Program-made: the position numbers and the translations under genes
Part shown: positions 13,050 through 62,110 of the stretch, one piece after another
Position numbering within the stretch: position 1 is the first letter of the stretch
How the letters are laid out: the number at the start of each line of letters is the position of its first letter
Notes under the pieces: generated by a model
What the model saw: the letters and a program-made list of their open reading frames with translations, nothing else
What the model was told of the DNA's origin: nothing
The model's database searches: none
NCBI RefSeq assembly: GCF_028641065.1
Contig: NC_073377.1
Location: 144,832,001 to 144,896,000 of the forward strand
DNA: 64,000 nucleotides
Source: Leucoraja erinacea
Taxonomy: Eukaryota
Reading direction: 5' to 3'

Positions 13050-13887
13050 ACGACTGTCAGTTTTGGCCGCCTCGCTCAGAGCCCCCCTCCGCCTTCTGGG
13101 ACCAAAGGATTTTTCCCATCGATGAAAAATCAGAGAAGTATTAATGTTTTTTTTAATTCCCCATTCTCTCTGCTGCCCCCGCTGGTGGTAGGGGGAGGTA
13201 CTATAAAACCATGAAGTGTAGTGCCTCACTCAGTCTCTGCCAGACCCAGGAAGCAAGAGGGTCATGGCTCGCTGAGCTGCGAATAACATTGAACGCACGT
13301 CTAGTCCACGGTGAGTCCCTCAATGCGGCTGTAAAATGGCTGCAGCCCAATTGTTTGCCTCGCCTTTTTAACAAGTTTGTGGTCACAAAATTAATATTGG
13401 TTGTCAGTGGCTGCAGCCCAATTGTTTGCCTTGCCTTTAACAAGTTTGTGTTCACAAAATGAATTTTGGTTGTCAGGTGGCTGCAGCCCAATTGTTTGCC
13501 TCGCCTTTTTTTAACAAGTTTGTGTTCACAAAATGAATTTTGGTTGTCAGGTGGCTGCAGCCCAATTGTTTGCCTCGGCTTTTGAATAGGTTTGTGTTCA
13601 CAAAATGAATTTTGGTTGTCCAGTGGCTGCAGCCCAAATGTTTGCCTTGGCTTGGCTTTTAAAATCGTTGCAACAGTTGGATGCCAGCCCAAGAATCCAT
13701 TTGGCCCACAATGTCTATACTAGCTCTCAAAACCAGTACCTTCGGCCTGCAACACCCATACTAGCGCAACAGACAGCCCCCCCCTCCACTGGCGAGCAAT
13801 ATTGGAATTGGTGGAGAGGTGGAATATTATGTTGGTGACCAGCCCTCCCATGTGATGCTGGGACCCAACGGGTCCCACTTAGTCTAG
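13050..13887 (+). mobile_element. Non-autonomous Helitron (copy 2, 5'-truncated, expanded internal tandem repeat)
   Basis: Homologous to 11590-12277. Perfect hairpin TGGGACCC-AAC-GGGTCCCA (13859-13877), then CTAG|T. Confidence 0.85.
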
Positions 13888-24010: not shown

Positions 24011-27000
24011 TTTTACTTCGGAGTCACGTGAGTGACTACGTGAAGACCCCGCCAGCACGCATGCGCGACATATCGTCTCTCGCATTGCGCAAACGACAGG
24101 CTGTTGGAGCGCTGCTTCCAACAGCTCGGACCTGAAGGTAAGTTTTTAACTTTTTCAGGTCTCTTTTTTTACTGCAGGAAGCGTTCAGAGCTCCTGCTGG
24201 AGGTCCGAGGTCGGAACCCCAGCGCCACCCGGCTCCCTTCTACAGGGACCGCCGAGGGTGTGGGGGGGGGGGAATCCCGGCTGCGAATCGCGGGGATATC
24301 CGAAGCCGACCACAGAATCGCGGGGAAGCCCTTTATCGGGGACCGCGAGGGAAACCCCATTTACTAAGCCACGCCGGCTCGGGGGAAGCCCAAAACCAAG
24401 GGAGCATTCAAAGGGGAAATCCCGGCTCCCGACACCGCAAGGATCCCTGCTACAAGGTTCCATAGATGCTGCTGCACCCGCTGAGTTTCGCCAGCATTTT
24501 AGGTCCCAACTACAAGGGCCGTGGGGAATGCCGACCGCAGGGAGAAGCCTGGCTGCGGGGACCACGGAACCTCAGAAGACTGCAGGTAACCTGCCTTCCG
24601 GGACCAGAGGAAGACCGCGGGTAACCCGTTCTCCAAAACCGCGGGAAGACGGCGGGTAACCAGTTCTCTGAGACCGCGGGAAGACCACAGGTAACCCGAC
24701 TTTGGAGGCCACGGGAAAACCACAGGTAACCCAACTTCAGAGACCATGGGAAACCACGGATAACCCGACTTCAGAGACCACGGGAAAACCACGGGTAACC
24801 CAGCTTCAGGGACCGTGGGAAGACCACGTATAACCCAGCTTCGGGACCGTGGGAAGACTGGGGATAACCCAGCCTCGTGGACCGTGGAAAAACAGCGAAT
24901 AACCCAGTTTCAGGGACTGTGGGAAGACTGTGGATAACCAAGCTACAGGGACCTTGCGAAGAACACGGGTAGAACCGTGCTTGGGGGGAAACCTCAGCTA
25001 CGGGGACCGTGGAAGACCACGGGCAGAACCGTGCTTGGGGGAAACCTCAGCCACGGGGACCGTGCAAAAGCGGCGGGTAGATCTGTGCTTCGGGGAAACC
25101 TCAGCCACGGGGACCGTGTGGGAGACCGCGGGTAGAACCGTGCTTGGGGGACACCCCAGCTACGGGGACTGTGTGGAAGACATGGCTAGGACTGCAGAGG
25201 AGCGGGTAGCCAGCGGCAAATTCAGACTCCGCCTGCCCGAGGAGGGTAAGAGCTAAAACAGGAGTCTGAAAGGCCTAGACTGCAGTCAGGCCAGAAGGGT
25301 CCCCTCCGACATGGGTTCGTCCGAGTTAAACCCATCTTAATTTGCCAGGGAGGGCCATATCAGCGCAGGTCTCCTCGAGAGCCTGTGGCAGCACCCTTTT
25401 CTGGGCTGCCTACAAAACTCACTTCTGCGAAGGTGAGTGCGAGGAGTCAGTTGGCAACTGACTCTGAACTCGGAAGCATGTCCGAGGAACAGGTGCCGGC
25501 TGGGAGTTACCATGCACCTGGAAAGACATGGGTCCACATACACCAGCAGCCCTACACTCTAATCAAGGATGGAAATTGAACCCGCATCGAGAGCCTTTTG
25601 GGCTTACCATAAAACCACCGGTAGCCATGACGGTAGGTGGGTCTGGTTCTTTGCAAAATGTGGGGTTGTGGACTATTTACAAGAAGGTTGGATGAGATAG
25701 TTTATACTGCACAGTTCAAGCGAGACAATCTAGGAATATGCCTGGAGTTGCCTCTTTAGGCAGGCTCGCTATTATGACAAATGAGGTATGTTTATTATCA
25801 ACAAGCCCAACTCGCATGTGCAGTATAGACATTGAAACTTTGTGACCATTAATTCCCTTGGGGTCAGCTTCATTCACAGGGCACTGGAAATAACTGAAAT
25901 TTAACTGGATGGGGAAATGATAGTTAAAACATTGCAAAATAGGCTAACTTCAGTTTCCAGGTTATTTACAAAATGAGTGCTTCGGCTGCTCAGTTTTAAA
26001 AATATTGTTAAGAACTGTCTGGATGAGATTAAACAATGTATTTTGCTAAATTAGCTGTATCAGCCACAAAACCCATTTGAGAAATTGGGTTCTCATCTGT
26101 CCAGATAAATTTAAGTTGATACCAACTGAACTTATTGATAATTGGGATTACCTTTAACTCAATTTAATCGTCTGGGACTCCATCCTGAGGTAAGGGATTG
26201 GAATTAATTGAAGCCCGTAACAAAACTGATCAAGCAACCTTCTGTTCATCAAGTATAATTGGCTTACAGCTGTGCTATTTGGGCCTTTGCACAATCAGAA
26301 CTATACAGCATGCAAAAGAAGTAAGCACTCAAGTATCATGTGGTCATTGTTACCAGCTCTATGCTATTCCACTAAATCAGTAAATCTTCAGTTAAATTAC
26401 AAACTGATGCTATTGTTCAGGATGAGAAATTGCTCATGCCATCTAGTTACAGATGTGGATGGGAGAGTTACCAATTCCTCAGTTACATGGTATCAACTAC
26501 CTAGAGACACTGGGTGCATTCTGTGGATTAAAGGTTTATGCGAATATGCCTAATCTGCATGCTCTAGTCCAAGTTGATACACTTCGGTGGTGGTAAACAT
26601 TATTTACATGGGTGCAAACAAGTAAAAATATCCGGTGATAGTTTACCCAAACCTCATTACGGTACACAATATGGGTGTTGGATCACAAAGTATTAAAATA
26701 CATTGTGAACATTAAAGACCAAGAAGCTTGCATATTGGCTCAATCACCAGTGGAAAATATGTGGCATATCGGTAGCGTTGGTTACATTCTAGCTACATTA
26801 AGGAGGAATGTTCTTTTATGTCTTCCTCCATTTCTGCCTCATCAGACGGGTTTGCAAAATTCAGCAAGTTCCCGCCTCAAGAATTTTTATAGTGCCTGCC
26901 GGGCTTAGCCAGCCATGGTTCCCACTAATGTGGGGAATGATAGAACCTTATATGGTTATTCTAGACATAAGTATTGGTCTAGCCGTGACGCGGGAAACTG

Positions 27001-28897: not shown

Positions 28898-30045
28898 TTC
28901 TGACAACACTTAGCTGGTCAGCCTGCATTGGGGTGCCCCCTCTCATTGGTACGGAAAATTTGCATTTTTCAGCTTGAAATTGTGCAATATGGTGCATACT
29001 GTAGCGAGTCTTATAACTTACACTTGAATGCAATATATATGCTTTAAATTGTATTGGAGCGTTTTTGAAAGGGGGGAGACTGTGCGATCACTGATCACTG
29101 GCCTTGGGGGTACCCGGTGAGGGAGTGGAGCAACCGAGTGGGTAGAGGGTGTGGAAGAAGGGTGTGTCCCCCTCCCAGGGTAGGAACTTTTTGAAATTTG
29201 ATGTATTAAAATCATGTTTTAGTGCTCAGTAGAAGTATGATTTCAATGTTTTTTGTATGAAGTATTTTTAAGAGGTAACTTTTTAAGGGGTAATTTTATC
29301 CACGCAAATGGTGATGGGCGTATGGAAGAAGCTGCCAGAGGAGGTAGTTGAGGCAGGGACCATCCCAACATTTAAGAAAAAGTTAGACTGATACATGGAT
29401 AGGACAGGTTTGGAGGTATGGACCAAAAGCAGGTGGCGTAGCTGGGACATGTTGGCGGGTGTGGGCAAGTTGCACCGAAGGGCCTGTTTTCACACTGTAT
29501 CACTCTATGACTACATTATACCTCCACCATGCATGAATGCTTCAAAATCAGGTGATCGACTTTTATTGCCATATACTCAAGCATATAAACATAGAAAATA
29601 GGTGCAGGAATAGGCCATTTGGCCCTTCGAGCCTGCACTGCCATTCAATATTATCATGGCTATTCATCTAAAATCAGTACCTTTTTCCTGTTTTTTCCCC
29701 ATATCCCTTGATGTCATTAGCCCCAAGAACTAAATGTAACTCTCTCTTGAAAACATCCAGTGAATTGTCCTGCACTTCCTTCTGTGGCAGAGAATACCAC
29801 AGATTCACAACTCTCTGCATGAAGAAAGTTTGTTCTCCTCCCAGGCCTAACTCCCCCCCCCCCCCCCCCCGCCCCCTTTATTCTTAAACTGTGACCCATG
29901 GTTCTGAACGCCCCCAACATCGGGAACATTTTTCCTGCCGTTTACAGTAAGTGAAAATCTAGCAGGCAAGCAGGATGCTTTCACCAACCACCCCCATTTG
30001 AAGTCCACTATCTTTCATCGTATCTACCCAGTGCTTGGTACTTAC

Positions 30046-31221
30046 TTCCAGCAGCCACTGGTTGTCCTCCAGGATGCACCGAGCAGCAGCCTGATCCATA
30101 CCGGTCACCAGGGCAAATTCGACACAGAGACTCTCTCTCTCTCCCCCCTCTCTTCCTCCAGCGCCTACTCTCCTCACAGACACCCCCCCCCCCTCTCTCG
30201 CCCCTATCTCTCCCCCCCCCTCTCTTTCCCCTCTCTCTTTATCCTCCTCTCTGTCTCTCGTCTCACCCTCTCTCTCTCCCCGTCTCCCCCCTCTCACTCT
30301 CTCCCCTTCCCTCTCTTCTCTCTCTCCCCCCTCTCATCCCCCCCCTCTCTCCCCTCCCCCCCTCTCCCCTCTCTCCCTCCCCTTACTCTTCCCCCTCCTC
30401 TCTTGTCCCCTCCCTCTTACTCTTCCCCCTCTCGCTTGTCCCCTCTCCTCCCTCTCCATCTCTCTCCCCTCTCTTTCCCCTAAACTCTCTTTCCCCTAAC
30501 TCTCTCTCTCCCCCTCTCTTTCTTTCTCTCTCTCTCTCCCTCTTCTCTCTTCCCCCTCGCTTCCCCCCCCCCCAACTCTTTCTCCCTCCCTCTATCTCTC
30601 CCCCTATCTCTCCCTCTCCACACACTCTCCCCTCTCTCTCTGTCTCTCCTCTCTCCTCTCTCTCCTCCTCTCTTCCCCATTTCTCCCTCCTACCTTACCC
30701 TCTCTCTCTCCCCTCCTCTCTCTCTCTCCCCTCTCTTCCACGTTCCCTCTCTCCCCCTCTCTTTGTCTCTATCTCTCTTTTTCTTTGCTCCCCTATCTCT
30801 CTCTTTCCCCCTCTCCCCCCTCTCTCTTTACCATCTCCCTCTCTCTCCCCATTCTCTCCTACCCTCTCCACCTCCTCTCTCTCTTGTCCCTCTTAAAATC
30901 TTTCTTCCCTCTCACCCCCTCTCATCCACTCCCCCCCTCTCCCACCACACTCTCCCCTGCAACTCTCTCCCCCTACACTCTCTCTCCACATCCCCCCTCT
31001 CCCTTTCCTCTCTCTCTCCATTCACTCCCCCCCTCTCTCCCCTCTCTCTCCTCTCACCCCCCACTCTCTCCCCACTGTCTCCCTGTCTCCTTCCCCTCTC
31101 TCTCTCTCTCCACCTCCCTTTGAGAGTCTGTCCCTTCGGCACAGAGACTCTCGCGGCAGCGGCAGCGGTGCGCTTCCGACGCCCCCAACGCCCGGGACAT
31201 TCACTGTCCGGAGCGCTCCAT
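30046..31221 (-). pseudogene. TDP2: TDP2 exon-1-like fragment (UBA-like N-terminus) with retained splice donor, split by a ~1 kb CT-rich insertion
   Basis: 31221-31135 reads MERSGQ*MSRALGASEAHRCRCRESLCAE. 30135-30046 reads ESLCVEFALVTGMDQAAARCILEDNQWLLE followed by GTAAGT. This resembles human TDP2 LLCVEFASVASCDAAVAQCFLAENDWEME. No further TDP2 exons seen. Confidence 0.75.
30136..31134. repeat. CT-rich polypyrimidine low-complexity tract (~1 kb)
   Basis: Direct reading; flanked by an 18-bp near-perfect direct repeat. Confidence 0.95.
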
Positions 31222-31359
31222 GGCCAGAGCTGCAGCGAGCGACACGCCGGCCCCGGCAAACACTCGTCCGTCCCGGCTCCCCGCATCTGTTCCGCCGCTG
31301 GTTCTGCTCCCATCCCTCCCGCAGCCCCGGCTCTCCAACACCCGCGGACCACGCAGTTT

Positions 31360-31495
31360 ATCCGAGTTTTGAAATTTTCGTTGATCACAAAATTTCTCCC
31401 CACTGAGCGTGAGAAATTTCTGATGAGCGTGAGGGCGTGAGAGTTTGCTTGAGGGCGTGAGTCTCACGCTCAAAGCGTGAGAGTTGGCAGCCCTG
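31360..31495. mobile_element. hAT-type transposon terminus with subterminal repeats
   Basis: GAGTTGGCAGCCCTG at 31481-31495 (rc CAGGGCTGCCAACTC); six GCGTGAG/CTCACGC motifs in 31407-31481. Confidence 0.65.
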
Positions 31496-61948: not shown

Positions 61949-62110
61949 GTCTCGAAATTTGTTCCAATGCCCGGGCTCCTTGTCGTACTGCGAGACGGTG
62001 GTCAGCCATTGTTTATCATCCAGAAAATTGCCGTTGTCCGCGGCTGCACGGTGCCTGCCTTCTATCTGCAAAAAGGCTACAGCAGCAACACAGAGCAGGA
62101 CCTTTAGCAT
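61949..62110 (-). CDS. SPOCK3: Testican-3 first coding exon (signal peptide + N-terminal testican region), 54 codons, phase-0 donor
   Basis: Translates MLKVLLCVAAVAFLQIEGRHRAAADNGNFLDDKQWLTTVSQYDKEPGHWNKFRD, matching the vertebrate SPOCK3 N-terminus as I recall it (MLKV...GNFLDDKQWLTTISQYDKEVGQWNKFRD). Polypyrimidine/AG acceptor (ttctccctttctcgtttgcag) directly before the ATG; GTATGT donor after the GAC codon. Confidence 0.93.

Follow-up and report, generated by a model that had tools for sequence, protein, structure and literature searches.

A TDP2 first exon in a SPOCK3 intron of the little skate, probably carried there by a nested, high-copy cut-and-paste transposon

The element at 28931-31495 of the window (the whole 64,000-nucleotide stretch of Leucoraja erinacea DNA that was analysed) is very probably a damaged copy of a cut-and-paste transposon that is non-autonomous and has the TDP2 leader, exon 1, splice donor and beginning of intron 1 on board at hundreds of sites; its cargo is likely a neutrally decaying passenger. 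An earlier note on this DNA, made from the letters alone, had proposed a captured TDP2 first exon. The capture is borne out, but the note missed the vehicle, which consists of two nested TIR transposons, as well as the hundreds of sites and the broken reading frame. The parts of the copy and the host exon are as follows.

28931-31495, minus strand: whole element copy, a non-autonomous TIR element of type B
31483-31495, minus strand: outer left TIR, CAGGGCTGCCAAC; 18 of 19 other copies begin no more than 7 bases from 31495, and GTTGGCAGCCCTG mirrors it at the right end of full copies
31354-31482, minus strand: outer left subterminal arm with CTCACG repeats, common to the nested copy L257 and to TDP2-less sister elements
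31342-31353, minus strand: relic of the inner left end, CATGGGCCGCGG type, intact in free inner and early nested copies
31222-31341, minus strand: captured CpG-rich TDP2 5' leader, aligning to the parent upstream of the ATG; CpG observed/expected ratio (o/e) about 1
31135-31221, minus strand: TDP2 exon 1, 5' portion beginning at the parental ATG, by alignment to the parent; stop at codon 7
31113-31134, minus strand: linker forming an imperfect fold-back hairpin with the exon end, a marker of the young B and C subfamilies; its junction 24-mer occurs 294 times
30136-31112, minus strand: GA-rich low-complexity tract (CT on the plus strand), differing in length among copies
30046-30135, minus strand: 3' part of TDP2 exon 1, 81 of 90 bases identical to the parent
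30040-30045, minus strand: splice donor GTAAGT, phase 0; GTAGGT in the parent
29940-30039, minus strand: unique start of TDP2 intron 1, 77 of 86 bases identical to the parent
29286-29939, minus strand: further TDP2 intron 1 with retro-element fragments, in continuous alignment to C2:37570330-37569498
29056-29276, minus strand: inner right arm with its terminal bases gone, matching the free inner copy L133
28931-29055, minus strand: truncated outer right arm; the last 90 bp or so, the right TIR and the target duplication are absent
61949-62110, minus strand: first coding exon of SPOCK3 (testican-3), ending in phase 0; the element lies in the following intron on the same strand

The placement inside a SPOCK3 intron, as first proposed, is correct: the element follows the first coding exon on the same strand, and later SPOCK3 exons lie 100-370 kb further on, at C1:144.73-144.46 Mb. 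The next short SPOCK3 exon was not found in the window or in the 10 kb beyond it. At least four family members lie within the span of the SPOCK3 gene (G000:C1:144496011, 144589312, 144780091 and the window copy), two on each strand.

Positions 30046-30138 of the minus strand read RESLCVEFALVTGMDQAAARCILEDNQWLLE, with GTAAGT directly 3' at 30045-30040, in agreement with the UBA-like peptide ending at a donor that was described before. The top PDB match of this peptide is the UBA domain of TDP2 (6q00_B, E 2.5e-5, residues 4-34 of 45), ahead of the C. elegans-type TDP2 4f1i (E 0.26) and NSFL1C p47 (E 1.0). The Pfam UBA_4 score is slightly below the cut-off (E 2.7e-4, 21.1 bits against 21.8), and the top named protein is little-skate TDP2, P0002. 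TDP2 thus scores above NSFL1C and other UBA genes, any of which would have spoken against the identification.

A search with P0002 gives one complete TDP2 gene, at C2:37548389-37570402. Its exon 1 ends in ...NQWLLE followed by GTAGGT, and exon 2 starts with RALN after AG. In human TDP2, exon 1 ends at the homologous ...NDWEME codon. Leader, exon 1, donor and the beginning of the intron in the window copy all have their counterparts in the parent, in the same order, as expected of the locus from which the piece came: window 31346-31135 has 165 of 205 aligned bases identical to the parental leader and 5' exon 1, and window 30135-29286 has 706 of 818 aligned bases identical to the remainder of parental exon 1, its donor and roughly 740 bp of intron 1. 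TDP2 exons beyond exon 1 are carried by no part of the element and are found only at the C2 locus, so the window does not hold the real gene. No element ends were found around parental TDP2 within a 40-kb alignment; like the cargo of a Pack-TIR element, the captured piece has an identifiable host parent free of flanking element. As the element carries no catalytic exon, the idea that TDP2 chemistry took part in the capture was abandoned.

These comparisons show that the cargo was captured from TDP2 at the DNA level and not as a retrocopy, since the exon-intron junction is kept together with intronic repeats in their parental order; the retro-element fragments in the intron part of the window copy follow each other as in parental intron 1. 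The earlier note had drawn the same distinction from the donor and intron. A processed or partly processed retrocopy, or an L1/CR1-type transduction amplified through RNA, would account for retro-element fragments and a purine tract within the element. Those fragments belong to the parental intron, however, while exon 2 and a poly(A) end are missing. The retained intron and the inverted-repeat ends refute this explanation, whose probability is practically nil.

The leader at 31135-31360 is as CpG-rich as had been claimed (GC 0.70, 28 CpG, o/e 1.08, against o/e 0.45 for the whole window). In the window copy the TDP2 start codon at 31221 opens the frame MERSGQ* with its stop at codon 7, and the captured exon covers only the first two-thirds of the UBA domain. 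The in-frame N-terminus that was read after removal of the CT tract does exist as a frame, MSRAL...CAE, but it begins at a non-parental ATG. Likewise, the tract does interrupt the exon, but rejoining the halves also requires removal of the 22-bp linker and of one of two 18-bp junction copies. The roughly 105 bp of non-repeat sequence noted after the donor are present, but the homology to TDP2 runs on for about 650 bp into repeat-derived intron. Read directly, the sense strand is rich in purines throughout the tract ahead of the 3' half-exon, and a good acceptor for inclusion of this half-exon into SPOCK3 is therefore not apparent.

The TDP2 piece is dispersed through the genome, as the earlier note had thought possible. 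The 211-bp exon/intron stretch gives 1,640 first-look candidates, 40 of which were scored and are 95-100% identical. A 27-mer across exon and donor occurs exactly 787 times, the parent included (reversed control 0), and there are therefore at least 786 copies; the candidate counts lead to an estimated total of one to two thousand. At the right boundary 16 of 19 other copies reach 28930-28948. The TIRs of full copies are 13 bp long, with an outer end that we take to resemble Blackjack ends. An inverted-repeat scan was restricted to the window and is dominated by the GA tract.

Target duplications were compared in 39 non-redundant two-ended copies, a convenience sample to which the window copy, with its left end only, does not belong. 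The duplication is exact in 26 of the 39 (5 bp in two, 6 bp in 13, 7 bp in nine and 8 bp in two), has one mismatch in nine and is absent in four, while only 1 of 1,482 mismatched flank pairs reaches 5 bp. TIRs at both ends and duplications that differ from copy to copy are thus found across this sample, as in Pack-TIR elements. Helitrons lack TIRs, make no target duplication and have TC...CTRR ends; Helitron gene capture is ruled out by the TIRs and target duplications seen here. A rival explanation has the TDP2 5' end spread by segmental duplication or gene conversion, the transposon ends having been picked up by chance; this would fit a cargo of genomic DNA with intronic repeats. It does not explain sharp TIR ends, distinct duplications, many contigs and unrelated flanks; the target duplications refute it, and its probability is negligible.

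The exact outer left end occurs 1,305 times, and of the first 30 occurrences by position 10 carry TDP2 and 20 are sister elements. Seven sister elements (L098, L104, L105, L109, L116, L121 and L124) have the same outer TIR around a different CpG-rich interior, which resembles the 5' end of another gene or a promoter belonging to the element itself. The long outer element interior at L139:2360-2610, and also in L241, contains an acceptor-flanked exon-like stretch with an upstream CpG-bearing ATG region, which may represent another captured gene or what is left of a transposase. This stretch has no match in Pfam, PDB or the word index, and a full HMMER search returns a single unnamed protein of 55 amino acids (93%), probably another copy.

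The TDP2 piece belongs to a second, inner element. Eighty exact left ends were found for the inner family, and 30 inner loci were examined, with the TDP2 leader in 16 and without it in 14. Among free inner loci with a recognised right end, 5 of 7 have a 5-bp duplication. L133 is a complete free loaded inner copy of 1.9 kb with a 5-bp duplication; 977 of 1,122 bases are identical to the parent, judged by eye, its cargo begins some 260 bp upstream of the ATG, and it extends deeper into the intron than the window copy does. Versions free of cargo, as known for Pack-TIR elements, are thus seen at 14 of 30 inner loci, at 20 of 30 outer left ends and at the empty site L241.

The inner element holding the TDP2 piece sits inside the outer element at a duplicated GTTCA. 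When the outer arm just upstream of the inner end was used as query, 30 loci were obtained with the anchor in 29; 28 of these go on into the inner element, whereas in L241 the arm passes uninterrupted into outer interior. L241 could be an excision product instead of the original empty site. GTTCA flanks the inner element on both sides in L230, and on its left in L240, with a one-base variant in L237; in most early nested copies the left GTTCA is gone. Long nested forms of 3.1-3.3 kb keep 6-bp duplications, and shorter forms have lost the interior and both inner ends. In the early nested copies L172 and L166 a further, incomplete TDP2 unit precedes the inner element on its upstream side, which is another type of duplication.

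Recombination or template switching might instead have brought the outer and inner parts together from two element families, with no true nested insertion. The missing left-hand duplication in most early nested copies would fit this, as would the CA-G/TGG-C type of ends present in both families. Against it, GTTCA is seen on both sides in L230 and, on the left, in L240 and in variant form in L237, its 5 bp are the inner family's own duplication length, and L241 provides the uninterrupted site. Such a joining appears quite improbable, and a true nested insertion is the preferred reading. Free loaded inner element, nested element with duplication, empty site and trimmed or rearranged derivatives are all kept in one genome, which makes the route of capture and hand-over directly readable.

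Subfamilies were counted in 48 of the first 53 position-ordered C1 copies, five being left out for short flanks. Type A, with one intact exon, makes up 16 of the 48. Type C (13) has a 5' half-exon followed by the fold-back linker, the GA tract and one more left arm, whose exon is intact, and in type B (11) the GA tract runs straight into the exon; three are free inner copies, one is early nested and four are unclassified. Type B junctions fall at two exon positions, at about -66 in eight copies including the window and at about -9 in four. These two positions fit deletions out of type C, and the 18-bp repeat of the window would then, with B derived from C, be the overlap of two exon copies and no target duplication. 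In a tree of 40 of the 123 rows, eight B and six C rows group together on short branches, with support of 96/95. The parent is placed near the free inner copies with weak support; the bootstrap is unsettled and the deep order weakly supported. B and C copies diverge from their own majority by a median of 3.6% (18 rows, one outlier dropped), and we infer the subfamily order A to C to B.

The course of events may be reconstructed as follows. The inner element would have acquired TDP2 DNA through gap filling or template switching and, thus loaded, would then have transposed into the outer element. The composite might have spread on the outer ends with a transposase acting in trans, probably from the hAT Blackjack/hAT5/hAT6 side, while internal deletions trimmed both inner ends. 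Duplication of the left part with the fold-back linker and GA tract could have produced type C; type B, to which the window copy belongs, would have followed through deletions reaching from the GA tract into the second of the two exon copies. Finally, the right TIR would have been lost here. Having neither a right TIR nor a matching duplication, the window copy would be immobile, and the SPOCK3 copy is in itself an ordinary, broken one.

No transposase was found with either end pair in 20 widened loci or in the 30 best PF05699 loci, out of 150 that were scored among 1,468 candidates, and no transposase-like long frame occurs among the matches listed for the 20 widened sister loci. Mechanism and superfamily are therefore read from the ends and duplications, on which the element family is provisionally filed as hAT-like. 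The fixed 8-bp duplication of canonical hAT elements is not seen, as only 2 of the 26 exact outer duplications have 8 bp and the inner family has 5 bp. The 5-bp duplication of hAT5 is found for the inner element, in 5 of 7 free loci and in L133. According to the accessible text of Kojima 2025 (PMC12730594), hAT families with 5-bp and 6-bp duplications occur in the lineage that includes Blackjack. The skate elements resemble the hAT5, hAT6 and Blackjack families described there in the 5-bp inner and mostly 6-7-bp outer duplications, but differ in that the outer duplication varies between 5 and 8 bp within one family and that no transposase is linked to it. This variable duplication points to a transposase yet to be identified. 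A distinct hAT element of 3.4 kb lies at L272:3462-6903; its ends are different, its duplication measures 8 bp and its copies are about 97% identical.

Selection on the exon was assessed with rates taken from the intron and with shared alleles counted per copy. In each class the exon has diverged from the parent about as much as the unique intron has (in B, for instance, the values are 0.894 and 0.904, respectively). In 32 copies chosen by their ends or arm, 136 non-synonymous changes stand against 53 synonymous ones (ratio 0.9, p 0.51), and these least-biased copies look neutral. The 39 window-like copies (13 synonymous, 9 non-synonymous, ratio 0.25, p 0.0025) and the 45 protein-selected copies (45 synonymous, 63 non-synonymous, ratio 0.48, p 0.0004) are not neutral-looking, though both sets were picked on the exon. 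A crude ratio of 0.37 was dropped, as it mixed subfamilies and protein-selected copies. The cargo is not a functional UBA-domain gene, given the partial domain, the stop at codon 7 and the ratio of 0.9 in the least biased set; it is likely an inert passenger.

RNA matching the intact-exon unit L017 amounts to 125 of 12.9 million reads in a poly(A) bulk run and 373 of 17.6 million in a single-cell run. Most of these reads are 90-95% identical and so come from many copies. Read depth is nearly unchanged across the donor, and the bulk-run reads lie in both directions. Six bulk poly(A) reads depart from the unit precisely at the donor, and the consensus beyond it is mixed (agreement 0.53) and not TDP2 exon 2 throughout, while contigs of two older RNA runs leave at the donor into TDP2 exon 2. 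The six reads, which may include parent reads, give hints that copy donors are in use.

The family might therefore be thought of as a mobile first-exon cassette, in which some leaders and donors start transcripts spliced to host exons and so yield N-terminally replaced proteins or truncated RNAs. The CpG-rich leader, ATG and phase-0 donor do travel as one, the frame from ATG to donor is open in 13 of 48 position-ordered copies (the donor being fixed by the search pattern), reads come from many divergent copies, and the six that exit exactly at the donor are unlike TDP2 exon 2. A bat Helitron with NUBPL exon 1 is also reported by Thomas et al. 2014 (PMC4224331) to be fused to an SGSM3 transcript. 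On the other hand, flat depth over the donor and bidirectional bulk reads are what intronic read-through predicts, the donor-exit reads are possibly partly parental, the exon is only part of a UBA domain (residues 4-34 of 45) and the unbiased copies look neutral. Use of the family as such a cassette is unlikely, and even then the window copy would not act so as a protein. It is equally doubtful that one to two thousand leader/ATG/phase-0-donor cassettes lie scattered with a few hundred of them open and some serving as host first exons, the CpG-rich cargo having favoured the loaded over the empty form. The inert passenger is the preferred reading; nevertheless, hundreds of copies with one first exon and donor offer a test bed for whether captured 5' ends aid spread or make chimeric transcripts.

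A public predicted protein, P0001, with 112 amino acids corresponds to unspliced read-through from the exon of an intact copy into the intron. Such copies can be mis-annotated as UBA genes, of which P0001 is an instance.

The family is a high-copy, nested variant of the Pack-TIR elements. Tan et al. 2021 report 370 Pack-TIRs in 100 animals, four of them multicopy; the accessible parts of that paper include no skate and give 0 Pack-TIRs for the elephant shark, TDP2 is absent from the supplements available, and the text searched for 'nested' does not describe two-step nesting (PMC8277862). Pack-hAT-N8_XT is one of the multicopy elements and carries the CAPSL 5' UTR in three copies. It resembles the skate family in having host 5' sequence between TIRs, a parent on another chromosome, distinct duplications per copy and a non-autonomous nature, but differs from it in number, with three copies against at least 786 (PMC8277862). 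Plant Pack-MULEs, as far as they are treated in the same source, likewise hold DNA-level gene fragments in non-autonomous TIR elements and are often multicopy (PMC8277862). They have long TIRs and 9-10-bp duplications, compared with the 13-bp TIRs and 5-8-bp duplications of the skate family.

Gene 5' ends are reported at higher copy numbers in the available text of Thomas et al. 2014, where the bat Helitron HelibatN3 carries the NUBPL promoter, 5' UTR, exon 1 and part of intron 1 in about a thousand copies (PMC4224331). Cargo anatomy and order of copy number are the same in the skate family. HelibatN3 is a rolling-circle element without TIRs, however, whereas the TIRs and target duplications of the skate family point to cut-and-paste. 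Vertebrate cut-and-paste gene capture is described in the accessible parts of Tan et al. as rare and nearly always single-copy (PMC8277862), and the skate family thus represents cut-and-paste gene capture at Helitron scale. No paper describing a TDP2-carrying skate transposon was found; Repbase, Dfam and subscription literature were outside this search, and the family may therefore be catalogued there as a repeat.

Elsewhere in the window, GC-rich tandem arrays with units of 35 and 54 bp lie at 24595-25181 beside a CpG-rich stretch, and a tandem array at 13330-13653 has about 4.4 copies of 72-74-bp units that are 88-91% alike.
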